Translations under genes and position numbers: made by a program
From: Arenimonas terrae
GTDB taxonomy: Bacteria > Pseudomonadota > Gammaproteobacteria > Xanthomonadales > Xanthomonadaceae
Reading direction: 5' to 3'
NCBI RefSeq assembly: GCF_006265115.1
Contig: NZ_SMDR01000003.1
Span: forward strand, 323,694-347,693
Length of the DNA: 24,000 nucleotides
The notes under the pieces: model-generated
The model's input: only the letters and a program-made list of their open reading frames with translations
Told to the model about the DNA's origin: nothing
The model's database searches: none
Shown: piece by piece, positions 1 through 18,836 of the stretch
Position numbering within the stretch: position 1 is the stretch's first letter
How the letters are laid out: each line of letters opens with the position of its first letter

Positions 1-1025
1 CTAAGCTCGTCGCCTGCCGTTCTCTCCGTTTCAGGAGCATCCGACCTGGTTGCGGGACCTCTTTGCTCCGCACCCCGTATCGAGAGGAACGCGAGTCCGC
101 AGAGCACCACAAGCACCGCAATCACCGGCAGCTTCGGAAAGCCAGGGAGCAGCATTGCGACCAGCAGGACTACGCCGACAATCAGCAACGCGCGTGGGTT
201 GGCGAGCATCTGTCGCGGAATTTCGGTCCCGAGCTGGGCATCGGCCGCGGCTCGTGTGATGATGATGCCTGTGGCGACGGCGATGACTAGTGACGGAATT
301 TGCGTGACGATCCCGTCGCCGATAGTGAGCAGGGTAAACCGCTGGACCGCGTCGGCCCACGGCAGTCCCATCTGAGCGATGCCGATGGCCAGGCCGCCGA
401 CGATATTGACGCCGATGATGATGATTCCGGCGATCGCATCGCCCTTGACGAACTTCGTCGCGCCGTCCATCGCGCCGTAGAAGTTGGCCTCTCTTTCTAC
501 CAACGCTCGTCTAGAACGCGCCTCCTTCTCATCGATCAAACCCATGTTCATATCGGCGTCGATGCTCATTTGCTTGCCGGGCATGCTGTCTAGCGTGAAC
601 CTCGCAGCGACTTCGGCCACGCGCTGTGCGCCGCTGGTCACAACCACGTACTGAACGACCACGAGAATAAGGAAGACGACGACACCGACGATGTAGTTGC
701 CGCCCACGACGAACTCTCCGATCGCACCAATGACCCGACCGGCATCGGCACCTTCCAGGATGAGGCGGGTGGCCGAGACGTTTAGCGCCAGCCTGAACAG
801 CGTCGACAGGAGCAGCAAAGTCGGAAAAGTCGAGAACTTGAGTGGCGTCTCGATGAAAAAGGTCACAAGAAGCACCAGCAGCGCCATGCTGATGTTGGTT
901 ATGAGAAGGAAGTCGAGCACCGGCGATGGAACTGGAACAAACAACAGCATCAGTACGCCCATCACTAGTGCGATAAGCACCAGGTCGCGACGACCCGCCC
1001 ACAGTTGCTGGAGGGCATGCATCAT
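1..1025 (-). CDS. sctV: Type III secretion export-gate protein SctV (FlhA/HrcV/YscV family), N-terminal ~341 codons; continues beyond the left edge
   Basis: Absent from the ORF track (no stop in window). My translation of the minus strand from ATG 1025: MMHALQQLWAGRRDLVLIALVMGVLMLLFVPVPSPVLDFLLITNISMALLVLLVTFF..FRLALNVSATRLILEGADAGRVIGAIGEFVVGGNYIVG..ARFTLDSMPGKQMSIDADMNMGLIDEKEA..FYGAMDGATKFVKGDAIAG..LTIGDGIVTQIPSLVIAVATGIIITR. FTLDxMPGKQMSIDAD and KFVKGDAIAG are FHIPEP-family hallmarks. KQMSID and the short ILEGADAG loop resemble injectisome rather than flagellar FlhA. The ATG overlaps the sctU stop (ATGA, 1022-1025). Confidence 0.9.
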   Translation of the reverse strand, partial: MMHALQQLWAGRRDLVLIALVMGVLMLLFVPVPSPVLDFLLITNISMALLVLLVTFFIETPLKFSTFPTLLLLSTLFRLALNVSATRLILEGADAGRVIGAIGEFVVGGNYIVGVVVFLILVVVQYVVVTSGAQRVAEVAARFTLDSMPGKQMSIDADMNMGLIDEKEARSRRALVEREANFYGAMDGATKFVKGDAIAGIIIIGVNIVGGLAIGIAQMGLPWADAVQRFTLLTIGDGIVTQIPSLVIAVATGIIITRAAADAQLGTEIPRQMLANPRALLIVGVVLLVAMLLPGFPKLPVIAVLVVLCGLAFLSIRGAEQRGPATRSDAPETERTAGDEL

Positions 1026-2086
1026 CGCTCGTCCCTCATCGCCCAGATGCGCCGGTAGATGGGAGCCAGCGCGATATACAGGTCAGCCGGGACCATTGCG
1101 TCAATTCCGCAACCTTTGTAGAGCGCCCGGGCCAGCACAGGCGACCTGATGATTGGGACGCCGCTCTTCGCGGCGATCTTGCGAATCTGGGCGCTGAGCG
1201 CGCCCGCGCCTTTGGCCGTGACCACCGGCGCCATCGTCTCCCCGACGCGGTAGCGGAGTGCGACGGCAAAATGGGTCGGATTGGTGACGACCACATCGGC
1301 GTCCTTCACACTCGCCAGCGCTTTGATCTTGCGAAGAAGTTCCTGAACCTGCTGCTTTCGCTTTGCCTTCACCGCTTGGTCGCCATCGCGGCGCTTGATC
1401 TCGTCCTTCAGCTCTCGCCGGCTCATCTTCATCCGGCGCTTGAAATCACGCCTGACGAATAGCAGGTCGACGACTGCGGCGGCCGCGATGACGATCAGGA
1501 CATAGATTGAAGCGGTCTTGAACATGTCCAGCAGCACCGCGCCGAGCTTCTTTGGATGCGCAGACGCGATGCTGTCGGTCACCGCCTGCAGGTTCCACAG
1601 GAAGGCGGCACAGATTGCGGCGAGCACCGACAGTTTGACCAGAATCTTTCCCAGCTCCCACAGCGATTTCATCGAGAATATTCGCTTTATCGCGGTGGCC
1701 GGACTTAGCCTGGAGAAGTCCGGCCGCAACGGATGGGTGGTGAACATCGGTCCGGTCTGCGCTAGGTTCGCGGCCACGGCGATCACCGGAAGTCCGATCG
1801 CGAGCGGGGCAAGCGCCTGCCAAAGCGATGACGACGACAGCAGGGATCGGGCCACGAAGGCGCCGTCTACAGCCGGAGACGAGCTGGCCACGGCGATCAT
1901 CCGCTTCGTCATGCCAGCGATGGCCATGGCGATGGCAGGCGCCGTCAGTGCGACGATCGCCGCCGAGACGATCATCACCAGTGCGGACGATAGATCCATG
2001 CTTTTCGCCACCTCGCCCTTCTTCCTGGCCTCTTCCAGCCGGTAAGGGGTGGCCTGTTCGGTCTTGTCCTGGTCCTGGTCGCTCAT
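1022..2086 (-). CDS. sctU: Type III secretion substrate-specificity switch protein SctU (FlhB/YscU/HrcU family)
   Basis: 354 aa. N-terminus MSDQDQDKTEQATPYRLEEARKKGEVAKS is the FlhB/SctU signature. Four hydrophobic segments. Conserved NPTH autocleavage site within VVTNPTHFAVALRY. Length fits injectisome SctU. Start is 1 nt after the sctT stop. Confidence 0.9.
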   Translation of the reverse strand: MSDQDQDKTEQATPYRLEEARKKGEVAKSMDLSSALVMIVSAAIVALTAPAIAMAIAGMTKRMIAVASSSPAVDGAFVARSLLSSSSLWQALAPLAIGLPVIAVAANLAQTGPMFTTHPLRPDFSRLSPATAIKRIFSMKSLWELGKILVKLSVLAAICAAFLWNLQAVTDSIASAHPKKLGAVLLDMFKTASIYVLIVIAAAAVVDLLFVRRDFKRRMKMSRRELKDEIKRRDGDQAVKAKRKQQVQELLRKIKALASVKDADVVVTNPTHFAVALRYRVGETMAPVVTAKGAGALSAQIRKIAAKSGVPIIRSPVLARALYKGCGIDAMVPADLYIALAPIYRRIWAMRDER

Positions 2087-2087
2087 G

Positions 2088-2861
2088 TCACATTCCCAGC
2101 ACCGACGGAACGCGCGACGTAGCGTCCCGGAACAGCCGCGCGAACGCGGCCGGCATGGCCCCGAGCGAGGATGCCGTCAGAATCATCGCAACGAACACCT
2201 TGAGCGGCAGGGCCAGGAAGTAGACATTCGCTTGCGGCATCGAGCGTGTCGCATAGGCAACACCGACGTCTATCGCGAAGAGGCAGAGAACCGTGGGCGC
2301 GGCGACCATCAGACCCAGGAGGAAGCTCGACCCCACCATGGACAAGAATGCGCTTGCATCCAGGTAGACGCTCGACCCGGCGAAGGGAAGCACTTCCGCG
2401 CTGACTACCAGGCCTGCGTAGAGGTCCAGATGAAGGTCCATGGTGAAAAATAGGGTCGTGGCCAACAGCAGAAGTGCCGCTCCAAGCGGCGACTGGGCAT
2501 CACCCTGCGAACCGGGATCGAACAATGTCGCTGAGCCAAGGCCCGCCTGAACGTCGATCACCCAGCCGGCCGTATGCACCGCAGCCATTGGAAAGGCCAC
2601 GGCGGCTCCAAAAGCCGTTCCGATCGCCAGCTCACTTAGCGCAGCGATCGTCCAGGCCACCGGCCCGCTCAGGTCAGCGGGTATCGCCGCGGGCGATGAC
2701 GCCAGAACCGTCAGCCAGGCTAGGCTCAGAACCACGACGATACGAATCAGAGGCGGCGCCCAACGCATCGGGGACAGGGGCGGAATGGCAACGACGGGGA
2801 TGTATCGGATCACGGCGAGCAGGAACATCCCCATCGCTCCCTCGACATGCTGCATGTTCAC
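2088..2861 (-). CDS. sctT: Type III secretion export apparatus protein SctT (FliR/HrcT family)
   Basis: 257-aa polytopic membrane protein in the canonical position between sctS and sctU. GTG 2861 overlaps the sctS stop (GTGA); alternative ATG at 2855. Confidence 0.8.
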   Translation of the reverse strand: MNMQHVEGAMGMFLLAVIRYIPVVAIPPLSPMRWAPPLIRIVVVLSLAWLTVLASSPAAIPADLSGPVAWTIAALSELAIGTAFGAAVAFPMAAVHTAGWVIDVQAGLGSATLFDPGSQGDAQSPLGAALLLLATTLFFTMDLHLDLYAGLVVSAEVLPFAGSSVYLDASAFLSMVGSSFLLGLMVAAPTVLCLFAIDVGVAYATRSMPQANVYFLALPLKVFVAMILTASSLGAMPAAFARLFRDATSRVPSVLGM

Positions 2862-3121
2862 AGCCGGCCCGCCAGTTCGAACATCTGGCGCGACAGGTCG
2901 ACCGCCACCGACATCATCCAGCTTCCGAAAGCGAGACAGATGCCCATGAGGACAATCAGCTTCGGAACAAAGGTCAGGGTCATTTCCTGGATCTGTGTGA
3001 CCACTTGGACGATTGAAACGAGCACTCCCACAACCAAAGTTGCCAGCAGCAGCGGCATAGATATCTTCGCGGCGGCCAATAGGGTGTCCGCTAGCAGGCG
3101 GATGGCGAGATCGGAGTCCAC
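2858..3121 (-). CDS. sctS: Type III secretion export apparatus protein SctS (FliQ/HrcS family)
   Basis: 87 aa, two hydrophobic helices. VSIVQVVTQIQEMTLTFVPKL matches the FliQ/SctS Q-x-TQIQE-x-T/L-x-FVPK motif. GTG start 8 nt after the TPR gene stop. Confidence 0.85.
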   Translation of the reverse strand: MDSDLAIRLLADTLLAAAKISMPLLLATLVVGVLVSIVQVVTQIQEMTLTFVPKLIVLMGICLAFGSWMMSVAVDLSRQMFELAGRL

Positions 3122-3129
3122 TGCGGCAC

Positions 3130-4275
3130 CTAGTCTTTCCGTCGTGATGCGTACGCGGAGGACAGCCTTTGAGCGATGAGTTTCAGGGATGGCCCCCCCG
3201 GGATGCCCGCTTTGGCGAGGATCGCCGCAAACATCCGCTCGGCCCGGCCGGTGTCACCACGGGCGCTTTCGAGCAGCGCTTTCGCCAACATTGCGGTTAT
3301 TGCGGTTGGGTCGAGCCTGAGTGCTATGGAGAGGTGCTGCTCGGCTTGTTCCTCGTCGCCTCGCAGCGTGGCTACCAAAGCCAGTCCTCCGTGGCTGTCA
3401 CCGAAGTTCCGCTCCGCCTCACGGGCGCGGCGGTAGCTCAGCTCGGCCGCGTCCAGGTTCCCCTGCAGAAGTTGCGCCCAAGCAAGCGCATGCAGCGTTC
3501 CCACATGCCGAGGCATGATGCGCGCCGCCGCTGAGAGCAGTTCCTCGGCGCGCGCGAAATCGGCTCTTGCCAGCGCGATTTCACCACTTCCGAACAGCGT
3601 CCGGCCCGACGCCGGGTATCGGCGCAGTATCCGCTCATGCAGTCGTTCGGCCGATTCCAGCTCGCCTTCCCAGCGGAAGATCGTTGCGACGGTGACCAAT
3701 GCTTCGTGCTGGTTCGCGTCCCTGCTCAACGCCGCGACCGCGTCGGCCCGAGCATCTGCCAATCGGTTGCTGTCGAGCATGGCGATTGACTTCACGCCTA
3801 GCGTGGTCGGATTCCCGGGATCCCGTGTGAGCGCGGCCTCGACGCATGCGATGGCTTTCTCCAGCTCATCCGTAGCCATGTGTATCCTGGCTTTCAGGAC
3901 GAGCAGGTCGGTGCTCTCTCCAAACCTTTCGAGCGCCTCCGAAACCAGCTTCATCGCCGCGTCTGAGTCACGGATGCAGAAGAGGGCGTGCGCCCGGTCG
4001 TGCTCAAGCCAAGACGCCTGTACACCCTCCGAGCGCAGCGCTTCGTACTCGGAAATGGCTTCGTGGAAACGGCCGCGCGCAAGGGCCGACCGGGCCACGC
4101 GCACCCGGATTTCCGGCAGGGAACGGATCTCCGCCGGCACCGAGCACAGCAGCTCCGCCGCTTCGCGATAGGAAGCGTCACGAAAAAGGTCGTCGGCGAC
4201 CTCGCCGACGAGCTTTGGATTGGCTGGGTCGCGCTCAAGCAGGGAGCCCAGCGCGCTGGTTGCGGTTTGGTTCAC
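3130..4275 (-). CDS. TPR-repeat protein (381 aa from GTG 4275) sitting where sctR is normally found
   Basis: The track ORF 3130..4557 would overlap the AraC gene by 190 nt. GTG 4275 is the most upstream in-frame start outside that gene, preceded by GAAAGAG 8 nt upstream. The sequence is a series of Ala/Leu/Arg-rich ~34-aa helical repeats (e.g. LHALAWAQLLQGNLDAAELSYRRAREAE, AEQHLSIALRLDPTAITAMLAKALLE), typical of TPR. Confidence 0.7.
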   Translation of the reverse strand: MNQTATSALGSLLERDPANPKLVGEVADDLFRDASYREAAELLCSVPAEIRSLPEIRVRVARSALARGRFHEAISEYEALRSEGVQASWLEHDRAHALFCIRDSDAAMKLVSEALERFGESTDLLVLKARIHMATDELEKAIACVEAALTRDPGNPTTLGVKSIAMLDSNRLADARADAVAALSRDANQHEALVTVATIFRWEGELESAERLHERILRRYPASGRTLFGSGEIALARADFARAEELLSAAARIMPRHVGTLHALAWAQLLQGNLDAAELSYRRAREAERNFGDSHGGLALVATLRGDEEQAEQHLSIALRLDPTAITAMLAKALLESARGDTGRAERMFAAILAKAGIPGGPSLKLIAQRLSSAYASRRKD

Positions 4276-4334
4276 GTGCGGATCTCTTTCGACAGCGTCG
4301 TTCCGGCGATCGAATGCGGCAGGCGTTGTTTCAT
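4272..4334 (-). other. 20-codon upstream ORF (MKQRLPHSIAGTTLSKEIRT) whose TGA overlaps the GTG start of the TPR gene
   Basis: ATG 4334..4332; stop TGA 4274..4272 overlaps GTG 4275..4273 (GTGA). Lies in the 92-nt AraC-TPR intergenic region. No evidence that it is translated. Confidence 0.2.
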
Positions 4335-4367
4335 CTCGAACAAGCGTCTCACGAGCGCAGGTTTTTT

Positions 4368-5261
4368 TTACCGCCGTTTGTCTGCCGTGTTTGTCTTCTT
4401 CGAGGCGACTGTGTTCGCTCCTACCAGCTTTCGGACCGTCGGTGATGGCATGGAGCGTTCGTCGCTTGGACGCTTTCCGAACGTCCGCCGATACATCCGG
4501 CCGAAGCTCGCGCAGTTTTCGAAACCGCACTCCACGGCGATCCGCTTCACAGGCCAATCGGTCGTTCTCAGGAGAGCGCAGGCATGCTGTGCGCGGAGCC
4601 GGATGGACGCCTCCTGCGGACTCTCTTCATAAATCTCCAGAAACTGCCGCGACAGATACCACCGCGAGAAGTTGGTTAGAGCTGAAAGCTCTTCGAGCCG
4701 CACCACCCGGTGCCGGTTTCCATCGAGCATCAACCGCGCGCGCTGCATCCGCGCGAACACTCTCAGCCGGCTAGCGGCCGACCGACCGGGGCAACGCGCG
4801 ATGCTGGCGTCATGGCACCGCGCCAGCGGCGCGAGCGCGAGAAGCATCTCCGTCGCGGCCTGAGCCTCGGGCAGCCGGCCGGCGGCGCCCACCCGCCACA
4901 ACGCCACGATGCGGCGACGCGCCGCCAGGTCGAAGCGTCCCCGGCCCGGCACGATGCCGAGCTCCCGGGCCTGCCGCGCCCACCGGCCCGAAAGGACAAC
5001 GCCTATCAGGACGCCGAGGCTGTTTCCGAGGATCTTCTGCGAAGGACTGCGATCCAGGACCAGCCATTCGCCCGGATCAAGGGCGAACTGACCCTCTCGG
5101 GCCCGAAGATGGCCGCCGCGCCGGACTTGCAGCCAGATCGACAGCTCCCCGCCCGTACCATCGAGCTCACTCTCATTCCGACCTGCAACTGCCCAAGCAA
5201 TATCCGGACTCCGCGAGCCGCTCCCGGCCAGCGACATCAGCTTGCTGCGTCCCAACTCCAT
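4368..5261 (-). CDS. AraC/XylS-family transcriptional regulator at the edge of the T3SS cluster
   Basis: 297 aa. C-terminal double HTH region: VRLEELSALTNFSRWYLSRQFLEIYEESPQEASIRLRAQHACALLRTTDWPVKRIAVECGFENCASFGRMYRRTFGKRPS. GAGGGG lies 6 nt before the ATG. AT-rich putative promoter region upstream. Confidence 0.85.
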   Translation of the reverse strand: MELGRSKLMSLAGSGSRSPDIAWAVAGRNESELDGTGGELSIWLQVRRGGHLRAREGQFALDPGEWLVLDRSPSQKILGNSLGVLIGVVLSGRWARQARELGIVPGRGRFDLAARRRIVALWRVGAAGRLPEAQAATEMLLALAPLARCHDASIARCPGRSAASRLRVFARMQRARLMLDGNRHRVVRLEELSALTNFSRWYLSRQFLEIYEESPQEASIRLRAQHACALLRTTDWPVKRIAVECGFENCASFGRMYRRTFGKRPSDERSMPSPTVRKLVGANTVASKKTNTADKRR

Positions 5262-5284
5262 GTCTCGCCCCTCTGAACCAAAGG

Positions 5285-5400
5285 GGTCCGTATGCCGGGC
5301 GCCCGTCCGGACGACATGAAAGACGGAAGAAATAACTAGAAAATTAAGCTTCTTTTTTTATTTTCTTTTGCAATCAACGAATTAGCTACGGACATGAGAC
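5285..5400. other. AT-rich junction between the lower-GC T3SS segment and high-GC core DNA; probable promoter region of the AraC gene
   Basis: aaagacggaagaaataactagaaaattaagcttctttttttattttcttttgcaatcaacgaattagc is far more AT-rich than anything else in the window. Composition steps from about 60% to about 70% GC across it (hand counts of single lines). Confidence 0.6.
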
Positions 5401-5516
5401 GCCCGCCGTCGGCTGACCGCCGCTGCTGCGCCCGGTACCGACGGTCCTCCGGTCGAGACGCCACGCCGATCAGCGGCCCTGATTGTCTGTCGGGAGCCGA
5501 GAGCGGCCGCCCGCCT

Positions 5517-6548
5517 TCACATGGCATCGTCGGGCACAGGGATCAGCAGGGTGAACACAGTGTGGCCCGGCCGCGAGCGGTAGCTCAGTGAGCCGCGGTG
5601 TTCGCGCGCCACCTGCTGGGCCAGCGGCAGGCCGAGGCCGCTGCCTTCGGCGCGGCCGGACACCAGCGGCAGGAAAATGCGTTCGGCCAGGTCCTCGGGC
5701 ACGCCGCGGCCGTCGTCGGCGATCTCGACGCGCACGGCCAGGCGGTGCGCGCTGTCGCCGATCAGCAGGTGGTGTTCGGCGCGGGTACGCAGCTGCACGG
5801 TGGTGGCGCCGGACTCGAGCGCGTTGCGCACCAGGTTCCACAGCGCCTGCGCCAGGCGGTCGCCGTCGCCGGGGAATTCCGGCAGCGAGGGATCGAAGTC
5901 GCGCACCAGCTTGATCGCCCAGCCGGCTTCGACTTCCGCCAGCTGACGCACGCGCTCGAGCACGGCGTGGATATTGGTCGGCGCGAACGCGCGCGGCGGC
6001 GCCGGGTTGAGCAGGCGGTCGACCAGGGCGGCAAGACGGTCCACTTCGCTGCCGATCAGGTCCACCAGTTCGCGGGTTTCGTCGCCTTCGACGCGGCGCG
6101 CCAGCAGCTGCGCGGCACCCTTCATGCCGGCCAGCGGATTGCGGATCTCGTGCGCCAGGCCCTTGAGCGCGGCGGACAGTGCGGCCGGCAGGGCGGTCGC
6201 GGGATCTTCGCCGGGGAATTCTTCGGCCAGGTGCGCTTCCAGGCGCAGGCCGCCATCGTCGCTGCGCGCCAGCCACAGATCGGCGAAGCGTTCGCTGCCG
6301 CCCGGATGCGCGAGCCGGGCGCGCCGCACGCGCAGCGCTTCGCCGGAGGCCGGCAGGCGCGGCAGCAGTTCGGTCAGGCGGCCGCCCTCGGCATCGAGTT
6401 CCCCCAGGCCCAGGCCGACCAGGCGCCGGGCGCTCACGCCCAGCCAGCTGGCGAAGGCAGCATTGCAGCCCAGCAGCCGGCCCTCGGCATCGGCCCAGGC
6501 CAGGGGCGTGCTGAGCTGGTCGGCGGTGGGCGGCAGCGGCTCGGACAT
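5517..6548 (-). CDS. ntrB: Nitrogen-regulation sensor histidine kinase NtrB (GlnL)
   Basis: 343 aa. N-terminal PAS-like region. H-box LKGLAHEIRNPLAGMKGAAQLLARR. RDFDPSLPEFPGD and PLVSGRAEGSGLGLPLAQ closely parallel E. coli NtrB (RDYDPSLPE.., PMVSGREGGTGLGLS). C-terminal PGHTVFTLLIP. Confidence 0.85.
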   Translation of the reverse strand: MSEPLPPTADQLSTPLAWADAEGRLLGCNAAFASWLGVSARRLVGLGLGELDAEGGRLTELLPRLPASGEALRVRRARLAHPGGSERFADLWLARSDDGGLRLEAHLAEEFPGEDPATALPAALSAALKGLAHEIRNPLAGMKGAAQLLARRVEGDETRELVDLIGSEVDRLAALVDRLLNPAPPRAFAPTNIHAVLERVRQLAEVEAGWAIKLVRDFDPSLPEFPGDGDRLAQALWNLVRNALESGATTVQLRTRAEHHLLIGDSAHRLAVRVEIADDGRGVPEDLAERIFLPLVSGRAEGSGLGLPLAQQVAREHRGSLSYRSRPGHTVFTLLIPVPDDAM

Positions 6549-6581
6549 GGCCGCAGCATAGTGAACCCGCCGCGGGAACGG

Positions 6582-6857
6582 CTACTGGCCGCCGCCGCCG
6601 GCCGCCCGCCGGCGGTTGCGCCGGTAGATCAGCTGGCCGGCGATGGCGGTCAGGCACAAGGCCGAATTGGTAGTCAGGAATACCCAGTTCTGCAGCAGCC
6701 AGCTGTAGAGCGCGAAGCCGGCGCTGGCCGATAGCTGGCCGACGAACAGCCACGAGGACACGCCCTCGGTGCTGCCGCTGCGCCACTGCACCACGACCTG
6801 GCGGACCAGCGTCGCCAGCAGCACCGCCGACGCCAGCCAGCCGATCGCTTCGGCCAC
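6582..6857 (-). CDS. Small 3-TM membrane protein, PQ-loop/SemiSWEET-like (MtN3 clan)
   Basis: 91 aa. Aligns without gaps to the SemiSWEET pattern: IGWLASAVLLATLVRQVVVQWRSGSTEGVSSWLF..ALYSWLLQNWVFLTTNSALC versus IG..A...T....PQ..K..KT+S..G.S......LW..YG.....P....N. RQ replaces the PQ motif; the conserved Asn in TM3 is present. GTG start 3 nt after the upstream stop. Confidence 0.5.
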   Translation of the reverse strand: MAEAIGWLASAVLLATLVRQVVVQWRSGSTEGVSSWLFVGQLSASAGFALYSWLLQNWVFLTTNSALCLTAIAGQLIYRRNRRRAAGGGGQ

Positions 6858-6860
6858 GGA

Positions 6861-7478
6861 CTAGTGCTTCTTGAGCATCTCGTCGCGGGCCTGCTCGGCG
6901 CGCGAGGCGCCGATCTTGGTCTCCACGTGCTTGACCTCCTCCGGCGGCGGCAGCACCGCCGGCAGGCCCAGCGACTGGATCCACAGCTCGCGGGTCCAGC
7001 CGGTGGTGTGCAGCAGGTGGTGGTGTTCGTCCTTGGCGACGGCGTCGTAGGCCTGCTGCAGCACTTTGGTCTCGTCGCCCGAGCCCTTCTCGGCCAGCAG
7101 GCCGATCAGCTCCCAGTTCTGGTGGTCCTTGGTCTCGGCCAGCACGACGCATTCGCCGGCCACCAGCTGCGCGGCTTCGGCATCGGCGGACTCGCGCGCC
7201 ATTTCGATGGCCTGCACCAGCGACTTGCCGATATGCGCCACCACCTCGCGTCCCGGCGAACGCTGCTCGGGGTCGAGCCCGACCTGTTCGAACACGTTGA
7301 TCAGCACCTCGTGGTGGCGGCGGGTCTGCTCGAGATATTCCTGCCACTCCTCGCGCAGGTCGTCGTTGACCGCGCATTCGATCGCCGCGGTGTAGACCTC
7401 GATGCCACCGAGTTCGGTTTCCAGCGCCTGCAGCAGCAGTTCCTCGAGCTGGGCGCGGTCGTACTTCTTCTTGGCCAT
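6861..7478 (-). CDS. Ferritin-like / four-helix-bundle domain protein (205 aa)
   Basis: Only the C-terminal 205 codons of track ORF 6861..8804 look real: ATG 7478 is preceded by AAGGAA 5 nt upstream. MAKKKYDRAQLEELLLQALETELGGIEVYTAAIECA..EWQEYLEQTRRHHEVL..DEHHHLLHTTGW has paired E/H-containing helices as in ferritin-like proteins. Family assignment is by eye only. Confidence 0.6.
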   Translation of the reverse strand: MAKKKYDRAQLEELLLQALETELGGIEVYTAAIECAVNDDLREEWQEYLEQTRRHHEVLINVFEQVGLDPEQRSPGREVVAHIGKSLVQAIEMARESADAEAAQLVAGECVVLAETKDHQNWELIGLLAEKGSGDETKVLQQAYDAVAKDEHHHLLHTTGWTRELWIQSLGLPAVLPPPEEVKHVETKIGASRAEQARDEMLKKH

Positions 7479-7510
7479 GACGGTTCCTTGGTGGTGGGGG
7501 GATCGCGGTG

Positions 7511-7539
7511 GGCGCCCCGGACGAGGCGTCCGGGGCGCC
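7511..7539. other. Perfect 13-bp GC-rich stem-loop between the PA2169-family and ferritin-like genes
   Basis: ggcgccccggacg-agg-cgtccggggcgcc. No U-tract on either strand. Confidence 0.6.
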
Positions 7540-7582
7540 GCCGCGGGGACCGGCGGGGGAGGAAATCCGGTCCCAGGGGGAC

Positions 7583-8023
7583 TCAGCGCCCGGTCGTGCG
7601 CTGCAGAGCGCGCAGGCTGTCGTGCATCTGTTCGACCTCGGGCAGGTAGCTGGCCGCCAGTTCGCGCACGCGCTGCGGCTGGTCCTGGGCGGTGGCGTCG
7701 CGGAAGGCGGCGACGATGCGGTCCTCCTGCTCTTCCAGCGCGGCGATGAAGCTGGCTTCCGAATCGCTGGCCAGGCGCGCGCGCAGGTCGGCATAGGACT
7801 GGCGGAAGCTGCCGAGCCAGGAGCCGTGCCCCGCGGGCTCGTCGCCGTTGCGCGCCACTTCGGCGCGCAGGTCGGCGGCGATGGTTTCCTTGAGGTGGCG
7901 GACGCGCTGGAACAGCTCGATGTGCGCCGCGCTGGTGCTGCGCTCGGCGGCCAGGCCGAAAAAGGCGATGCCGTCGTTCAGCGCTTCGACCAGTTCGTTC
8001 AGGGTGGCGGAGGGGCGGGTCAT
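7583..8023 (-). CDS. PA2169-family (DUF2383) four-helix-bundle protein (146 aa)
   Basis: ATG 8023 with AGGAG 7 nt upstream. TLNELVEALNDGIAFFGLAAERS..LF...EEQEDRIVAAFRDA matches the LN.L.e..DG..fY..AAe...EE.ED pattern of this family. Confidence 0.65.
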   Translation of the reverse strand: MTRPSATLNELVEALNDGIAFFGLAAERSTSAAHIELFQRVRHLKETIAADLRAEVARNGDEPAGHGSWLGSFRQSYADLRARLASDSEASFIAALEEQEDRIVAAFRDATAQDQPQRVRELAASYLPEVEQMHDSLRALQRTTGR

Positions 8024-8053
8024 GGCGAATCTCCTGGATGACCCGTGCAACGC

Positions 8054-8069
8054 TGCAGCTTCCGTGCCA
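8054..8069 (-). promoter_or_regulatory. Sigma54-type -24/-12 promoter candidate P1 (TGGCACGGAAGCTGCA)
   Basis: Minus strand reads CCG TGGCAC GGAAG CTGCA. One mismatch to TGGCAC-N5-TTGC (C for T). Predicted +1 near 8043, about 20 nt before the PA2169-family ATG. Nearly identical to P3. Confidence 0.6.
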
Positions 8070-8158
8070 CGGTACGCGCGCGCGGAAATCCATTCCCGGC
8101 TCGGGCGTGTTTTCCGTGCCCGCGCACGCGAGGCCGGTCGCGCGCGCGACGCCGCGGT

Positions 8159-8833
8159 TCAATGCCGGTTCGGCGGCAGCGCACGGTGGATCGCCGTCGC
8201 CGCGACGGCCGCTTCCGCCATCGCCACCGCCACCTCGCTCAGGCCCGCGACCACATCGCCCGCGGCGTAGAGGCCGGGCACGCACGTGCTTTGGCGGATG
8301 TCCACTTCCAGGTGGCCGTCGCCGGCACGGCGCGCGCCCAGCGCCACCGCCAGGTCGACGGGAACCCGCGCGAAGCGGATCGCCTGCATCGTGTCGACGA
8401 CGGGCGCCGGCGCGGCGGCGGCGTGCAGCCACACGCGCGGGTGCCCGCGCCGCAGCGGCAGCGGACACGCCACCGTCTGCGGTTCGATCGCACCGGTGGC
8501 GATCAGCACGCAGCGCGCGCGCACCAGCACGCCGTCCACTTCGGCCACGAAGCCCAAGCCGTCGCGGGCCAGGGTCTCGACCACGCCGCGGCAGACGACG
8601 ACGCCGGCGGCTTCGGCCTGGCGAAGGATCCGCTCCAGCAGCCGCGATCCGGGCTGCGCGCCCGGCACGCCCGGGCCCCGGCGCGGATGCCGCGGGCGCT
8701 GCCCGCGCGTCTCGCCGCGATCCACCACACAGGCCTGGCGGCCGTAGCGCGCGAGATTGGTCGCCGCGACCAGCCCGGCCGGTCCACCGCCAACGACCAG
8801 GCAATCCATGCGGCTGGCCGGCAGCGCGTTCAT
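8159..8833 (-). CDS. FAD-dependent pyridine-nucleotide-disulfide (thioredoxin-reductase-like) oxidoreductase, unusually short (224 aa)
   Basis: N-terminal FAD dinucleotide fold DCLVVGGGPAGLVAA and C-terminal GLYAAGDV..AVAMAEAAVAATAIHRAL. There is no second GxGxxA/G NAD(P)H-binding motif between them. Confidence 0.7.
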   Translation of the reverse strand: MNALPASRMDCLVVGGGPAGLVAATNLARYGRQACVVDRGETRGQRPRHPRRGPGVPGAQPGSRLLERILRQAEAAGVVVCRGVVETLARDGLGFVAEVDGVLVRARCVLIATGAIEPQTVACPLPLRRGHPRVWLHAAAAPAPVVDTMQAIRFARVPVDLAVALGARRAGDGHLEVDIRQSTCVPGLYAAGDVVAGLSEVAVAMAEAAVAATAIHRALPPNRH

Positions 8834-8843
8834 CGGCCGCCGG

Positions 8844-10496
8844 CTACAGCGGATCCTTCTCGTGCCGCGGCTGGGTGCGGCGGTCGCCGAGCAGCGAACT
8901 GATCACCAGTCCGGCGCCGAGACCGGCCGCGACCAGGAACATCAGCAGGGCCAGCACCGGATAACCCAGCAGGGTGCGCGAGGTCGGGATGTCCATGATC
9001 AGGGCCGCGCCGACGATCATCGCCGCGGCGATCACGCCGGCGGTGACGCGGTTGGCGATCTTCTGGATGCTTTCGATCAGGCGCGACTCCTCGAGCCCGG
9101 CGACATGGATGCGGAAGCGGTTGTCGGCCAGCGTGCGCAGCAGCACCGACAGCCGCTGCGGCGCGTCGCGCACCAGCTCCTGCATGTCGAACAGGTCGGT
9201 GGCCAGGCGCGAGAGGTCGAGCCCGGCGGCCGCGCGCTGGCGGAACAGGTGGTCGCGGTGCTCGCTCAGCGCCTGCTTCATGGACGCGCCCGGGTCGAGC
9301 GCGAGCGCCACCGATTCCAGGTTGAGCAGGGTCTTGCCCAGGATCGCCAGCTCGGCCGGCGGCCGCAGTCCGGCCTCGGCGCCGATGCGGATCAGGTCCA
9401 TCAGCACCGAGCCTTCGGACTCGGCCACGCCGGCGCTGGAGTAGCGGGCGACGCGGCGGCCGATCTCGCGGGTGAAGCGGGCTTCGTCGAAATCCTCCAG
9501 CCGCGTGCCCATGTGCGCGAACGTTTCCGCCACCTGCTCGCCGCGTCCGTCCACCGTGGCCACCACCAGCTTGAGCAGCTGGTCGCGCATGCGCGGCGGC
9601 ACGTAGGCCACCATGCCCAGGTCGAGCAGGATCAGCTCGTGCTCGGGCGTCAGCACCATGTTGCCGGGGTGCGGGTCGGCGTGGATCAGGCCGTGCACGA
9701 AGATCTGGTCCAGGTAGGCGCGGCCCAGCTCGTTCGCCAGCGCGCCCAGGTCGGCTTCCGGCCGGGCGACATCGGGAATGGCGGTGACGCGGATGCCTTC
9801 GGCCAGGTCCATCGTCAGCAGGCGGCGCGTGCTGTAGTCGCGCACCGGCGCCGGCACGTGGATGCGGGCATAGGGCGCCAGGTTCTCGCGGAAGGCGTCG
9901 AGGTTGTCGGCTTCCTGGCCGTAGTCGAGTTCGGTCATCACCGAGGTGCGGAACTCGTCGAGCCATTCGCGGAAGCCGTAGCGGCGGCCGACGCCGGTGA
10001 CCAGGCCCAGCGAGGCGATCAGCCGCCCGATCGACGACAGGTCGTTCTCCACCTGCTCGGCCAGCTGCGGGCGCTGCACCTTCACGGCCACGCGCCGGCC
10101 GCTGGGCAGCACGGCGGCGTGCACCTGGGCGAAGGAGGCGGTGCCGATGGGCACCGGTTCCAAGGTCTGGAAAACTTTACGCGCCGCCAGGCCCAGTTCG
10201 GCTTCGATGCGCTCGAGCACCTGCTCGAAGGGCATGGGCGTGGCCTGGTCCTGCAGCCGCGACAGCGCCACGAGGTAGTCGGGCGGCACCAGGTCGGGGC
10301 GCGTGGACAGCATCTGCCCGATCTTGACGAAGGTCGGGCCGAGCTTCTCGAGGTCGGCGGCGAACTCCTCGGCTTCCGGCGACGTCTCCGGACCGCCGGG
10401 CGCGCTGGCGCCGGGCGGCCGCGACTTGAACAGCGGCGAGCTGCGGTGCTTGAGCAGGAAGGCGGACAGGGACGACAGTTTCGCGCCTTCGCTCAT
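8844..10496 (-). CDS. ABC1/UbiB-family atypical protein kinase (AarF domain) with C-terminal TM helices
   Basis: ATG 10496 (GGAG 6 nt upstream), 550 aa. LGPTFVKIGQMLSTRPDLVPPDYLVALSRLQD, IGTASFAQVH, VAVKVQRP and HADPHPGNM are classic ABC1 motifs. Two hydrophobic C-terminal segments. Confidence 0.85.
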   Translation of the reverse strand: MSEGAKLSSLSAFLLKHRSSPLFKSRPPGASAPGGPETSPEAEEFAADLEKLGPTFVKIGQMLSTRPDLVPPDYLVALSRLQDQATPMPFEQVLERIEAELGLAARKVFQTLEPVPIGTASFAQVHAAVLPSGRRVAVKVQRPQLAEQVENDLSSIGRLIASLGLVTGVGRRYGFREWLDEFRTSVMTELDYGQEADNLDAFRENLAPYARIHVPAPVRDYSTRRLLTMDLAEGIRVTAIPDVARPEADLGALANELGRAYLDQIFVHGLIHADPHPGNMVLTPEHELILLDLGMVAYVPPRMRDQLLKLVVATVDGRGEQVAETFAHMGTRLEDFDEARFTREIGRRVARYSSAGVAESEGSVLMDLIRIGAEAGLRPPAELAILGKTLLNLESVALALDPGASMKQALSEHRDHLFRQRAAAGLDLSRLATDLFDMQELVRDAPQRLSVLLRTLADNRFRIHVAGLEESRLIESIQKIANRVTAGVIAAAMIVGAALIMDIPTSRTLLGYPVLALLMFLVAAGLGAGLVISSLLGDRRTQPRHEKDPL

Positions 10497-10512
10497 CGGG
10501 ATCTCCAGTGAC

Positions 10513-10532
10513 GCCCCGTCGGTCGACGGGGC
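10513..10532. other. GC-rich inverted repeat between the lipoprotein and UbiB-like genes
   Basis: gccccgt-cggtcg-acggggc. No U-tract; function unknown. Confidence 0.4.
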
Positions 10533-10589
10533 ATCGGGTGGGTCAGCGCGGCGCACCGCGGCAGGACGGCGTGGCGCCGGCGCGGGAAC

Positions 10590-11039
10590 TCAGCCGTCGG
10601 TGTCGGCCGGCGGCGGGCCTTCGGCCGGGACGGCTTCGCGCACGGCCTGGCTGCGGCGCAGTTCGGCGTCGGCGACGGCCTTGTCGTACACCGCCTCGGC
10701 GGTGTCCTTGCAGGCGTCGCGCGCGTCGCCGGTCATGGCCTCGCACTTCTCCTGCTCCACGTCTAGCGTGGATTTGGCCTTGGCGACCGCGACGTCGTAG
10801 TCGGCATCGGCCTTGTCGTCGCGCGGATCGTAGGTGCCCATCACCGGGCCGGTGTCGGGATTGACGCTGGCGTCGGCGGCGTCACGACGGGCGTCGGCGC
10901 GGTCGGCCTCGGCTTCGCGAACCTCTTGCGCACCTTCGGCGCGCGCCTCGGCGACGTCTTCGGCGGTTTCCTGCGGGGTTTCGCGGCAGGCCGAAAGCGC
11001 CAGCAGGACCAGGGCAACGGGAATCAGGGTGTTCTTCAT
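10590..11039 (-). CDS. Acidic Ala/Asp/Glu-rich lipoprotein (149 aa)
   Basis: ATG 11039 (GGAG 6 nt upstream). Signal peptide with lipobox: MKNTLIPVALVLLALSAC. The track ORF's upstream extension starts at a TTG that is part of the P2 promoter element and has no other in-frame start. Confidence 0.7.
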   Translation of the reverse strand: MKNTLIPVALVLLALSACRETPQETAEDVAEARAEGAQEVREAEADRADARRDAADASVNPDTGPVMGTYDPRDDKADADYDVAVAKAKSTLDVEQEKCEAMTGDARDACKDTAEAVYDKAVADAELRRSQAVREAVPAEGPPPADTDG

Positions 11040-11199
11040 GGGTTGCTCCGCGATGGGGGTGGCAGGCTCGGCATGGAAAAAGTGCGGACCCTGCCGGTGA
11101 CAGGGAGCGCCAGGGGAAGCGCGGCAGCCCCGGACAGGGTCCGTGGAGAAAGGCTCTTCTCCAATAGCCGATCGGTGGACGGGGGTCCGGGGGAAAGGA

Positions 11200-11215
11200 A
11201 GCAAGAGCGGTGCCA
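11200..11215 (-). promoter_or_regulatory. Sigma54 promoter candidate P2 (TGGCACCGCTCTTGCT), exact consensus
   Basis: Minus strand reads GCCGC TGGCAC CGCTC TTGCT TCC. Predicted +1 near 11189, giving a ~150-nt leader before the lipoprotein ATG. Lies in the divergent region shared with the EBP gene. Confidence 0.7.
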
Positions 11216-11341
11216 GCGGCCGCGCCGTCGGTAAGTTTTACCGGCCCGGAAAGGCTTTCCTGGTCGCGGCGGGAATCGGCGGTTTTTTTAACTGTGGGTT
11301 AACCGTTGAGGTGCACACTACGGCTCCGTCGGAGGCTGCCC

Positions 11342-12724
11342 ATGACCGAGCAACAGACACTGTTCATCGTCGACGACGACGTTGGATTCGTTCACGCCGC
11401 CGCCGAGCTGGCGCGCGAGCAGGGTTTCATCATCACCGTGGCCGGCAGCGTCGAACAGGCGCTGACGCGGCTCAAGGACACCAGCTTCGACGTCGCGCTG
11501 ATCGACCTGTCGCTGCCCGACGGCAGCGGGCTGGAGCTGCTCGAGCACCTGGACCTGGGCGGAAGCACCCAGGTCATCCTGATCACCGGCCATCCCACCG
11601 TGGAATCGGCGCTCAAGGCGATGCACCTGCCGATCGTCGACTACGTGGTCAAGCCGCTGCGCGCGGCCCAGTTCACCGACCTGCTGCAGTCGGCGGCGAA
11701 GCAGCGCCGCGTGGTCGGCACGCAGGGCGAACAGTGGCACGGCCTGGCCGGGCCCTCGGCGGCGATGGCCGACGTGCGCCAGCAGATCTGCCGCGTGGCG
11801 CCGACCGACGCTTCGGTGTTCATCGAAGGCGAAAGCGGCGTGGGCAAGGAGCTGGTGGCCGGCGCGATCCATGCCGAGAGCGGACGCACCGGACCCTTCG
11901 TCGCGCTCAACTGCGGCGCCGTGCCGGCCGAACTGCTCACCAGCCAGCTGTTCGGGCACGAGCGCGGCAGCTTCACCGGCGCCAACAGCCGCCACGTCGG
12001 CCTGTTCGAGCAGGCGCAGGGCGGCACCCTGTTCCTGGACGAGCTGACCGAGATGCCGATCCACCTGCAGGTGCACCTGCTGCGCGCGCTCGAGACGCGG
12101 ACCATCCGCCGGGTCGGCGGCAGCGAGGACATCCCGGTGGACGTGCGGGTGATCTCGGCCACCAACCGGCCGCATGCCGAGGCGATCGAGGCGGCGAAGC
12201 TGCGCGAGGACCTGTACTACCGGCTGGCCGAATTCCCGATGACCCTGCCCTCGCTGCGCGAGCGGCCGGAGGACGTGCTGCCGATCGCCGACCTGTTCCT
12301 GCAGCGCCTGAACGAGCGCTACGGCACCCGCCGCGCACTGTCGAAGGAAGGCGCCGACCGCCTGCAGCGCTACAGCTGGCCGGGCAACATCCGCGAGCTC
12401 AAGAACATCATCCAGCGCTCCTACATCCTGGCCGACGGCGACCTGATGACGCCGACCCTGCCCACCGGCAACGCACGCCCGCTGGCGGAAACCGAAAGCA
12501 CAATCACCTTCGCGGTCGGAACGCCCATGCACGAGATCGAAAGGCGCATGCTGTTCAAGACCCTGGCCTTCTTCGAGAACAACAAGGCCAAGGCCGCGCA
12601 GGCCCTGGGCGTCACCACCAAGACCATCTACAACCGCCTCACCGCCTACCAGTCGTCCAACGAACCCAGGGAGCGCACCGATGAACGCCCCGACACGCCG
12701 TCTCGATGCGAAACCGGCACCTGA
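11342..12724 (+). CDS. Sigma54-dependent response regulator (REC + AAA+ sigma54-interaction + Fis-type HTH), NtrC family
   Basis: ATG 11342 with GGAGG 6 nt upstream. REC: LFIVDDDVGF..DVALIDLSLPDGSG. Walker A GESGVGKE. Sigma54-contact loop as GSFTGA. LFLDELTEMP, RVGG, RVISATN, REDLYYRL. C-terminal HTH AKAAQALGVTTKTIYNRL. Confidence 0.9.
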   Translation: MTEQQTLFIVDDDVGFVHAAAELAREQGFIITVAGSVEQALTRLKDTSFDVALIDLSLPDGSGLELLEHLDLGGSTQVILITGHPTVESALKAMHLPIVDYVVKPLRAAQFTDLLQSAAKQRRVVGTQGEQWHGLAGPSAAMADVRQQICRVAPTDASVFIEGESGVGKELVAGAIHAESGRTGPFVALNCGAVPAELLTSQLFGHERGSFTGANSRHVGLFEQAQGGTLFLDELTEMPIHLQVHLLRALETRTIRRVGGSEDIPVDVRVISATNRPHAEAIEAAKLREDLYYRLAEFPMTLPSLRERPEDVLPIADLFLQRLNERYGTRRALSKEGADRLQRYSWPGNIRELKNIIQRSYILADGDLMTPTLPTGNARPLAETESTITFAVGTPMHEIERRMLFKTLAFFENNKAKAAQALGVTTKTIYNRLTAYQSSNEPRERTDERPDTPSRCETGT

Positions 12725-12959
12725 AGGCCTGGCGGTGTCGCGCCCGCCACCGGGTGAGCTGGTGACGATCCCTCGCCAGGAGCTGCAGGCCCTGGTGCAC
12801 GACATCCGCAACCACCTCAATTCCATGCTGATGAACGCCGGAGTTCTGGCGGTGCAAAGCCGCGCCAATCCGTCGTCGGCCCGCCATGCCGCCCAGCTCG
12901 AGGACGACGGCGAGAAATGCGCCCAGGCGCTGCGGAACCTGTCCGACCGCTATCTGTGA
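12681..12959 (+). CDS. 92-aa stand-alone H-box (DHp-like) protein; candidate phosphotransferase or kinase modulator
   Basis: ATG 12681 with AGGGAG 7 nt upstream; overlaps the EBP gene 3' end by 44 nt and ends 13 nt before the kinase ATG. High third-position GC in this frame. LQALVHDIRNHLNSMLMNAGVL resembles the kinase H-box (LATLSHELRNPLAALMASVEVL). It is followed by a second predicted helix and no ATPase domain. Confidence 0.55.
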   Translation: MNAPTRRLDAKPAPEGLAVSRPPPGELVTIPRQELQALVHDIRNHLNSMLMNAGVLAVQSRANPSSARHAAQLEDDGEKCAQALRNLSDRYL

Positions 12960-12972
12960 CCGCGGCGGGCGA

Positions 12973-16335: not shown

Positions 16336-16353
16336 TCGCGCCCGCGGCCGGAC

Positions 16354-16369
16354 TGGCACCGACCTTGCA
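16354..16369 (+). promoter_or_regulatory. Orphan sigma54 promoter candidate P6 (TGGCACCGACCTTGCA), exact consensus
   Basis: GAC TGGCAC CGACC TTGCA GCC begins 19 nt after the kinase TAG (16333-16335). Predicted +1 near 16380. No credible ORF downstream before the convergent SDR gene. Confidence 0.6.
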
Positions 16370-16434
16370 GCCTTCTCCCGGAGGGCGGTGCCTGCGGCCC
16401 GCGCTCCGCGGCGCGCCGGCTACCGGCGGCCGTG

Positions 16435-16469
16435 GCCCCCGGGGCGGCGTTCGAGGCCGCCCCCGGGGC
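16435..16469. terminator. GC-rich stem-loop between convergent kinase and SDR genes (possible bidirectional terminator, no U-tract)
   Basis: gcccccggggcggc-gttcgag-gccgcccccggggc: 8 bp + 1-nt bulge + 4 bp. Ends 5 nt before the SDR stop codon. Confidence 0.45.
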
Positions 16470-16473
16470 AACT

Positions 16474-17334: not shown

Positions 17335-17362
17335 GTGCAGTTCCTTCCTGGCGTGGGGAGCG

Positions 17363-17578
17363 TCAGTCGCCGACCAGGGAATGCACGCCGGCGTCGAAGT
17401 ATTCGGCGGGGATGATCCGGCGCGCCTCGGGCGCGACGATCAGCTGTTCCAGGCAGCCCATGGCGGTGGCCGCGAATCCGCCATGGCCTTCGGCCGTGGC
17501 GAAGATCACCAGGTGGGCCAGCGCCTCGATCGCATCGGCGGCGGCGTCGGGCAGCATCTGCGCTTCCTTCAGGCTCAT
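17363..17578 (-). CDS. Hypothetical 71-aa protein, first gene of the SDR operon
   Basis: ATG 17578 with GGAG 6 nt upstream; predicted P3 start is ~21 nt upstream. MSLKEAQMLPDAAADAIEALAHLVIFATAEGHGG... No family recognised. Confidence 0.45.
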   Translation of the reverse strand: MSLKEAQMLPDAAADAIEALAHLVIFATAEGHGGFAATAMGCLEQLIVAPEARRIIPAEYFDAGVHSLVGD

Positions 17579-17609
17579 GGCGTTCTCCGTCGGGGGACAA
17601 CGGAGGGCT

Positions 17610-17625
17610 TGCAGCATCCGTGCCA
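17610..17625 (-). promoter_or_regulatory. Sigma54 promoter candidate P3 (TGGCACGGATGCTGCA)
   Basis: Minus strand reads GCGCA TGGCAC GGATG CTGCA AGCC, 15/16 identical to P1. Predicted +1 near 17599. Confidence 0.6.
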
Positions 17626-17653
17626 TGCGCGCATGGCCGCAGAACTTCCTGCG

Positions 17654-17768: not shown

Positions 17769-17770
17769 CG

Positions 17771-18828: not shown

Positions 18829-18836
18829 GCCAGGCG

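Follow-up and report, generated by a model that had tools for sequence, protein, structure and literature searches.

What kind of secretion system is encoded at this locus, and what might it secrete? The window (the whole stretch of 24,000 nucleotides that was analysed) is C3:323694-347693 of Arenimonas terrae, where C3 is contig NZ_SMDR01000003.1 of a 3.31 Mb genome that is 99.96% complete and has a guanine-plus-cytosine (GC) content of 69.8%. A preliminary description of the window read its left end as an injectisome (a non-flagellar type III secretion system, or T3SS) of an unusual or rearranged sub-family, with the genes sctS-T-U-V and without sctR. These genes are of flagellar type. Our preferred reading, which we hold with somewhat more confidence than doubt, is that the left end of the window is part of an acquired island for a flagellar-type apparatus that lacks a filament and a motor, together with a giant Rhs protein as its probable cargo.

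The cluster and its relatives

Flagellar equivalog models outscored the corresponding Sct models for all seven of the proteins that we compared. FlhA scored 748 bits (559 for SctV), FlhB 307 (285 for SctU), FliR 129 (76 for SctT), FliQ 80 (50 for SctS), FliP 244 (174 for SctR), FliI 548 (499 for SctN), and FliF 207 (64 for SctJ). Judged by these scores, the genes that had been called sctS-T-U-V are fliQ, fliR, flhB, and flhA. The injectisome identity, including that of the supposedly injectisome-like SctV, does not hold up, as the flagellar profiles win and the neighboring genes encode proteins of the rod, the L and P (lipopolysaccharide and peptidoglycan) rings, and the hook. Unlike what is expected of an injectisome, the island has rod, FlgH/FlgI ring, FlgE, and FlgD genes and a full-length-type FliF, and secretin, needle, and translocator families had no match among the island open reading frames (ORFs) that we scanned. 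Finally, in a tree of 92 FlhA sequences that was rooted with HrcV of Xanthomonas arboricola, HrcV is the outgroup to both flagellar FlhA clades, and the FlhA of the window falls in a clade on the flagellar side.

Within the window, all of the cluster genes are on the minus strand. The first 341 codons of flhA occupy positions 1-1025 (FHIPEP, 5e-142); the gene runs past the left end of the window, and the complete flhA is C3:322667-324718, with a product of 683 aa. It is preceded by flhB (1022-2086, 354 aa; Bac_export_2, 1e-97), fliR (2088-2861, 257 aa; Bac_export_1), and fliQ (2858-3121, 87 aa; Bac_export_3). We confirmed the tight coupling that had been described for these four genes (a 4-nt GTGA overlap, a 1-nt gap, and a 4-nt ATGA overlap), and also that a gene for a tetratricopeptide repeat (TPR) protein lies immediately upstream of fliQ and a gene for an AraC-family regulator upstream of that. 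The TPR gene (3130-4275, 381 aa) matches multiple TPR families and begins with GTG, its first available start. The AraC gene (4368-5261, 297 aa; HTH_18 and HTH_AraC) is separated from it by 92 bp (4276-4367, from direct reading of the sequence).

Extending the contig leftwards, as the preliminary description had recommended, recovered fliP, fliF, fliI, and the remaining flagellar-type genes. (We assigned genes with Pfam and NCBIfam and read the genome downstream on the same strand.) After flhA come flgF, flgG, flgA, flgH, flgI, a weak FlgB-like gene, flgC, fliE (98 aa; PF02049, 76 bits), and fliF (441 aa). Then come a gene for a 158-aa FliG-like protein (a weak FliG_N match only, so that the N-terminal domain stands alone), fliH, fliI, two genes at the fliJ and fliK positions, flgD, and flgE. 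The cluster continues with a gene for a 256-aa FliM-like protein (a weak match to the C-terminal part of FliM/N), fliN, a weak FliO-like gene, fliP, and a gene for a 224-aa FliA/WhiG-like sigma factor (FliA_WhiG, 79 bits against a cut-off of 190), which is followed by the gene for a 4,654-aa RHS-repeat protein. In the cluster, all reading frames (roughly 27) are intact and tightly coupled. The sctR that was thought to be missing has its counterpart in this fliP, which is the sole FliP in the genome and lies 13 kb downstream in the same cluster (C3:308950-309777).

By these assignments, the export gate is FliP, FliQ, FliR, FlhB, and FlhA, the ATPase complex is FliH and FliI, and the MS (membrane and supramembrane) ring is FliF. 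Similarly, the rod is FliE, FlgB, FlgC, FlgF, and FlgG, the L/P rings are FlgH and FlgI with FlgA, the hook is FlgE, and the hook cap is FlgD. In a search of the whole genome, Flagellin_N and FliD_C had no match, FlgK had sub-threshold matches only (on the terminal motifs of flgG, flgF, and flgE), and FliG_C and MotB_plug had no match; MotA was not searched for because its family includes ExbB and TolQ. Among the parts of a motility organelle, then, core export, the MS ring, the rod, the L/P rings, and the hook are present, and the filament, junction, cap, and torque parts are unmatched, so the organism would be able to build the export gate, rings, rod, and hook only.

The canonical polar flagellum of the Xanthomonadales (Xanthomonas, Stenotrophomonas, and Dyella) has homologues of the cluster's export gate, ATPase, MS ring, rod, L/P rings, and hook, as well as a FliA-type sigma factor, which that of the cluster resembles. 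The cluster differs from it in that its FlhA belongs to a separate clade (about 40% identity), fliP is 13 kb from fliQ, flgF follows flhA, the filament, junction, cap, MotB stator, and FliG torque domain have no match, and TPR and giant Rhs genes are attached. An injectisome shares with the cluster a type III export gate, a flagellar ancestor, and, probably, the delivery of non-flagellar proteins. In contrast, the cluster has a rod, L/P rings, and a hook instead of a secretin, a needle, and a translocon, and it is an independent lineage.

To place the cluster in a family, we examined 80 loci from a scan of reference genomes with this FlhA; as they were retrieved by similarity to it, they are a sample of the clade and not an independent test. 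Their sources are Lysobacter, Novilysobacter, Stenotrophomonas, Xanthomonas, Pseudoxanthomonas, Arenimonas, Solilutibacter, Dyella, Rhodanobacter, Luteibacter, Pleionea, Kangiellaceae, Hahella, and Acidiferrobacterales. Of the 80, 79 have a collinear gene order (including L. enzymogenes, L. brunescens, and L. hankyongensis), flgF begins less than 400 nt after flhA in 79/80, and in 66 of 71 loci fliQ is preceded, at a distance of less than 300 nt, by the end of a homologue of the 381-aa TPR gene. The characteristic order, TPR-fliQR-flhBA-flgFGAHI-…-flgDE-…-fliP-sigma, is also the order found here. Five genomes that we read further have an identical cluster end (…flgD-flgE-fliM'-fliN-(fliO)-fliP-sigma), and the same reduced gene set and order run from Acidiferrobacterales through Lysobacteraceae. 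As the separation of fliP from fliQ is kept across the family, it is a family hallmark and not a local rearrangement. The suggestion of a rearranged or unusual sub-family has to be given up as well, since the same order, with the TPR gene before fliQ, occurs in 79/80 related loci. In other words, the counterpart of sctR lies elsewhere in a normally organised cluster and the family is a known one with this same order, which is the outcome that the preliminary description had itself named beforehand as telling against its reading.

In the FlhA tree, the FlhAs of these clusters (second-type FlhAs) form one clade (support of 100 by the Shimodaira-Hasegawa-like approximate likelihood ratio test, SH-aLRT; stem 1.09), which is sister to the canonical flagellar clade (support 100, stem 0.98). 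The FlhA of the window lies inside a Lysobacter subclade as the sister of the FlhA of L016, a Lysobacteraceae metagenome-assembled genome (MAG). The same clade includes those of L. enzymogenes and other Lysobacter, which are 68-73% identical to the FlhA of the window. When 300 genomes of the family were compared to this FlhA, the identities were either 60% or more or 41% or less, with the exception of one intermediate genome. X. arboricola CFBP 2528, S. maltophilia STE2, and Dyella marensis have both this cluster and a canonical flhA that is 20-35 kb from flagellin genes. Because it coexists with a complete canonical flagellum in these three genomes, the cluster is a paralogue and not a leftover. 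(Two Lysobacter genomes have this cluster only, and we found no flagellin in them.) On its gene order and the FlhA phylogeny, the cluster is a member of a conserved flagellar paralogue, namely the "FT3SS-like" (flagellar T3SS-like) cluster of non-flagellated Lysobacter. As a separate observation, S. maltophilia STE2 (L105, C1:3105316-3107268) and D. marensis (L106, C1:4733970-4735910) each have a third FHIPEP gene; these two genes have very long branches, lie outside both flagellar clades, and are apart from X. arboricola HrcV.

The Lysobacter cluster (L. enzymogenes strains OH11 and C3) has the same gene set and order, with a gene of the sigma-70 family at its end, and likewise has no match to fliC, fliD, flgK, flgL, the FliG C-terminal domain, motA, or motB. 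What sets the A. terrae cluster apart is that it is on a lower-GC island in Arenimonas, that an AraC gene is at its head, and that its module of giant, small TPR, and d124 genes comes after the sigma factor gene, where the usual place is before the TPR gene. Also, fliE is present here, along with the weak FlgB-like gene, in contrast to the lists of lost genes in the Lysobacter papers. Those papers treat the cluster as genes that were retained after the loss of the flagellum (De Bruijn 2015, PMC4657364; PMC9927559), and they do not mention paralogy with the canonical flagellum or a link to giant Rhs genes. Work on L. enzymogenes OH11 showed that the genes homologous to these are expressed, that they secrete FlgD, that secretion depends on FliI and FlhB, and that both twitching and antagonism of yeast require them (Fulano 2020, PMC7688988). 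Our literature search, whose coverage is incomplete, found no paper on paralogy with the canonical flagellum or on a second flagellar cluster in Xanthomonas.

Giant Rhs genes, promoters, and TPR proteins

The 4,654-aa protein that is encoded just after the sigma factor matches RHS_repeat (2.7e-124, over 17 stretches), DUF6531, and He_PIG/Ig domains. The cluster has a giant gene of this kind as its neighbor in at least 12 of the 16 genomes that we inspected and could map (this one included), and also in Povalibacter and Cupriavidus. The neighboring giant frames are 3,200 to more than 6,000 aa long and are on the same strand as the cluster. They were found in Lysobacter sp. BL-A-41-H3, S. maltophilia (two in tandem), S. 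nitritireducens, Dyella, Rhodanobacter, Pseudoxanthomonas, Novilysobacter, another Arenimonas, an uncultured gammaproteobacterium, and an Acidiferrobacterales MAG. The genes usually run giant - … - small TPR (about 185 aa) - d124 - TPR381 - fliQ … fliP - sigma, and here they follow a cyclic permutation of that order (AraC - TPR381 - fliQ … sigma - giant - small TPR - d124). L. hankyongensis also has its giant gene after the sigma factor gene. The order is …fliP - giant - TPR185 - TPR393 in Povalibacter and …fliP - sigma - TPR400 in Cupriavidus, followed there by a 124-aa gene and TPR191 on the opposite strand and then by the giant.

The first 20 residues are conserved in all of these giants (MVAVxxGNGLGLFNTSLxQLG). 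Among the 300 family genomes, this N-terminus is found in 17 and a second-type FlhA in 16 (counting G341, whose FlhA is divergent), with both in 15 genomes that span at least 10 genera; because of the relatedness of these genomes, the counts do not represent independent events. In a class-wide sample of 400 genomes, the giant N-terminus turned up in only 1, which is too few to assess co-occurrence, and the second-type FlhA of that genome is 61% identical to ours. A search of 5.8 billion proteins identified 147 giants with this N-terminus, with members also in Pseudomonas, Fluviicoccus, Povalibacter, Collimonas, Cupriavidus, Roseateles, Zooshikella, and others. Many of these relatives end in Tox-HNH, TNT, Ntox, EndoU, or deaminase domains and are followed by immunity genes and orphan cassettes.

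RHS repeats and DUF6531 are likewise found in the Rhs toxins of type VI secretion systems (T6SS) and in TcB/TcC cocoons, and relatives of the giant end in known toxin domains, as these do. The giant differs from typical Rhs effectors in being three to four times longer, in having He_PIG/Ig domains and a conserved N-terminus of its own, and in its putative sigma-28-type promoter and candidate TPR partners; also, Pfam reported no PAAR or VgrG domain in it. We also considered a filament-like structural role for the giant, but this is unsupported: neither the FlgK-ends model nor the Flg_bb_rod family matched the protein. We found no paper that links Rhs proteins to a flagellar-type system, again with incomplete coverage.

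A few observations concern the giants in other genomes. G248, G189, G254, and G217 have four or five giant paralogues each, which are scattered over the chromosome, not just next to the cluster, and have the conserved N-terminus in common. Most of these frames are 4,400-6,500 aa and some are cut short (one of the four in G217 is in an 859-aa frame). Three giant Ig/RHS proteins that are labelled as Kribbella, of the Actinomycetota (P0012, P0070, and P0071), have N-termini that are 64-68% identical to the proteobacterial family; this could reflect contamination, mislabelling, or cross-phylum transfer. In Povalibacter uvarum (L129, 24373-32567), the cluster and the giant are directly followed by a gene for a HipA-like kinase and a 1,446-aa nSTAND/TIR/TPR/trypsin-like gene, and this flank looks like a neighboring defence island.

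The promoters are a further connection between the giants and the cluster. The E. coli consensus for sigma-28 is TAAA-N17-CGAT, and the promoters of the canonical flagellum have the same geometry, TAAA-N17-(C/G)GAT, as the putative promoters described here. (We tested for sigma-28 geometry with TAAA-N15-GCCGATAA.) The motif CTAAAC-N16-G(G/C/A)A(T/C) is located 57-114 nt before the start codon in all 15 of the giant genes that we examined, and in 17 related loci it is found upstream of the small TPR gene, at a distance of 70-270 nt. In the strict form, TAAAC-N16-GGAT, it has just two occurrences in the A. terrae genome, before the giant gene and before the small-TPR/d124 pair. As about three strict motifs are expected from base composition, it is their placement and not their number that is informative. 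Putative promoters with the exact sigma-28 spacing are found before the giant gene and before the small-TPR operon. At the level of sequence, the giant genes are linked to the cluster by position, by co-occurrence, and by promoter type.

The 92-bp region at 4276-4367 has no sigma-28-type motif; the promoter of the TPR-fliQ operon probably lies within it. Most relatives have the small-TPR/d124 gene pair at this position. An AraC homologue precedes the TPR gene in just one of 65 related loci, in the Lysobacteraceae MAG (L016) mentioned above. On this comparison, the AraC gene is a lineage-specific addition at the head of the cluster.

The preliminary description suggested that the 381-aa TPR protein may be a chaperone or regulator, and a role as chaperone or adaptor is plausible, as the protein is a fixed member of the cluster. 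Also, TPR homologues of 393-400 aa are encoded beside giant genes in Pseudomonas, Povalibacter, and Cupriavidus. We see the protein as a candidate for the adaptor or chaperone of the giant Rhs proteins, or else for an assembly factor. When the 381-aa TPR protein and a profile of the small TPR protein were compared to solved structures, the matches were to generic TPR proteins only (OGT, MamA, and designed repeats). An AlphaFold2 model of the small TPR protein (predicted local distance difference test, pLDDT, of 89) had generic TPR folds and no type III chaperone among its top Foldseek hits. The model of d124 (pLDDT 74) has a disordered N-terminal half and a four-helix C-terminal half and had no Foldseek match at E < 3. 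With fold matches that are generic or absent, these comparisons neither support nor exclude roles as chaperones or anti-sigma factors.

What the apparatus might do

Under our preferred reading, the cluster would assemble a non-rotating basal body and hook as a conduit for proteins, and the 4,654-aa Rhs-repeat protein would, most likely, be its dedicated cargo. The cluster-encoded sigma-28-like factor would drive the promoter that is common to the giant and small-TPR operons; in a broader form of this reading, the giants would take flagellin's regulatory place. The TPR proteins would probably serve as adaptors for the conserved N-terminus of the giant, and AraC would be an added local regulatory input. 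In favor of a cargo, FlhB keeps the NPTH autocleavage (substrate-switch) site, which reads VVVTNPTHFAV in translation, though no classical late substrate is encoded. A basal body without a filament has a parallel in Buchnera aphidicola, which retains flagellin-less hook-basal bodies that are proposed to export proteins. However, the Buchnera structure is a reduced form of the sole flagellum in a shrinking symbiont genome, whereas the cluster described here is a conserved paralogue that is mobile among free-living bacteria and tied to toxin genes.

How far should this reading be trusted? That the giant Rhs proteins are cargo of the apparatus seems to us an even bet. For the broader proposal, that the family is a distinct mobile flagellar offshoot that exports giant Rhs toxins (4,000-6,500 aa) under the control of the cluster's sigma-28-like factor, our belief and our doubt are about equal. 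Several points weigh against the proposed export, which is a prediction from sequence. To our knowledge, the passage of an unfolded protein of 4,000-6,500 residues through a flagellar channel is without precedent. The giant of A. terrae does not contain the PxxxxDPxGL or DPxGL motif that marks the end of the Rhs core, and its last 599 aa matched no Pfam family and no recognised C-terminal toxin domain. The co-occurrence is imperfect: a clear second-type FlhA is missing from two family genomes that have the giant, and one genome has such an FlhA but no giant. The giant and three helpers (two TPR genes and a gene of about 125 aa) also occur in two Pseudomonas species and one MAG, and there no flagellar-type gene lies within 10 kb of them. 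In most relatives, this type of promoter may drive the apparatus operon as a whole, which would point to co-regulation and not necessarily to a "late substrate" class. The 80 collinear loci, as noted, were chosen by similarity. Finally, the other proteins that were reported to be secreted in the OH11 study are a protease, a glucanase, and a HAD-family protein (PMC7688988).

The strongest alternative is that the apparatus is as we describe but the giants are not its cargo. It would instead export small proteins, sense surfaces, or control type IV pili, and the giants would leave the cell in some other way with their own TPR proteins, so that the linkage reflects co-regulation or a common island history. 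The Pseudomonas and MAG loci fit this view, as do the dispersed giant paralogues (up to five per genome) and the phenotypes of the OH11 mutants, which lose twitching and the secretion of unrelated enzymes (PMC7688988). We nevertheless think it rather unlikely. Adjacency is maintained over several orders and in three different arrangements, co-occurrence is near-perfect over at least 10 genera, and the giant genes and the cluster have the same dedicated type of promoter. Also, the T6SS sheath protein TssC has no match in the A. terrae genome, and the giant has no Sec-like leader.

That the cluster is an ancestral flagellum in decay, whose remaining genes have no function today, is very improbable. 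This idea would explain why the flagellin, junction, cap, MotB stator, and FliG C-terminal functions are unmatched, and the literature does describe a set of retained genes (PMC4657364, PMC9927559). But decay is difficult to reconcile with intact and tightly coupled reading frames, with a reduced set and order that are the same from Acidiferrobacterales to Lysobacteraceae, with coexistence with a complete canonical flagellum in the three genomes checked, with recent acquisition in A. terrae (see below), or with a homologous system in OH11 that is functional (PMC7688988). To an unusual or rearranged injectisome we give practically no credence: its export-gate proteins do match Sct models and an AraC gene comes first in the cluster, as it does in some injectisome regulons, but the flagellar scores are higher for all seven proteins, FlgH/FlgI rings, five rod proteins, FlgE, FlgD, and a full-length-type FliF are encoded while secretin, needle, and translocator families are unmatched in the scanned ORFs, and HrcV falls outside both flagellar clades.

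A flagellar-type system had already been recorded in Lysobacter, and the call of an odd injectisome was wrong. What our analysis adds is that the cluster is a separate, conserved, and horizontally mobile paralogue that occurs beside true flagella, as opposed to the remains of a lost one; that it has a predicted complete rod, including FliE, plus a hook, and has shed the parts for rotation and the filament; and that it is connected to giant Rhs genes by position, co-occurrence, and a sigma-28-type promoter. If the broader proposal is true, then type III secretion would have a third functional lineage in addition to the flagellum and the injectisome, and Rhs toxins would have a new delivery route. 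If the link to the giants holds, the family would also show, for a second time and independently, how a flagellum was turned into a secretion weapon. The link makes the purpose of the Lysobacter FT3SS directly testable.

The island and its borders

The preliminary description also proposed that the segment was acquired horizontally, and this part of it stands. The lower GC content that it reported is confirmed (62.9% for 1-5261 versus 71.2% for 5517-20000), and the difference persists in a genome-wide check: C3:292.5-330 kb is the genome's longest run of 5-kb intervals with below 65.5% GC. The island itself is about 35 kb (C3:294,000-329,100) and has 63.5% GC, compared to the genome mean of 69.8% (standard deviation 2.5). 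Positions 1-5261 of the window are its promoter-proximal end. The AT-rich end of the segment is likewise real, with 43% GC at 5285-5400 and a core of 28% at 5330-5400. We place the right border of the island at 5262-5516 by composition, and this interval probably contains the araC promoter. Beyond it, on the minus strand, is an ntrB-like kinase gene (5517-6548), the first core gene, which is kept across the genus (36 of 40 genomes, with 60-95% identity).

Comparison to the closest relative, G014, defines the insert. In G014, ntrB directly adjoins the homologue of C3:282594-285441, so the A. terrae genome has about 43.8 kb extra, and the island lies within this strain-specific insert. The left 8.5 kb of the insert has a core-like GC content and ordinary accessory genes, and the gene for a PD40 protein at that end is in 0/40 genomes of the genus. 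No direct repeat of 11 nt or more is common to both borders, there is no tRNA in positions 1-8000 of the window or at the far border, and no integrase or transposase domain was found in any of the island ORFs scanned, in agreement with the earlier remark that no tRNA, integrase, or insertion sequence is visible at the right border.

The distribution of the cluster also argues for transfer. Cluster-type FlhA is present in only 2 of 24 other genomes of the genus in one sample and in 0 of 9 in another. Furthermore, a tree that holds the FlhAs of the genus (three genomes) together is rejected by the approximately unbiased (AU) test (ΔlnL 411, p ~ 1e-66), for a group that was defined by taxonomy and chosen after the tree had been inspected. 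From its composition, its absence from G014, its sporadic occurrence, and the AU test, the segment is foreign and newly acquired in this genome.

We also note some features of the surroundings. A second tract of lower GC (63.7% versus about 71% around it) runs from 20400 to 24000 and on to about C3:349000. It has DUF4440/SnoaL-like, TetR regulator, and Trans_reg_C (OmpR-type DNA-binding) genes and may be another acquired segment. In the left part of the insert, C3:290602-292942 holds the gene for the PD40 beta-propeller protein (666 aa) and a 203-aa Trans_reg_C gene; a paralogue of the PD40 protein with 36% identity is encoded at C5:61918-63444. Finally, in another genome (L126, G362:C36), positions 15417-15998 beside ntrB resemble C3:287257-287846 within the insert (the acyltransferase region, 74% identity), and as this ntrB flank matches sequence from the insert, the flank of ntrB is a variable spot in the genus.

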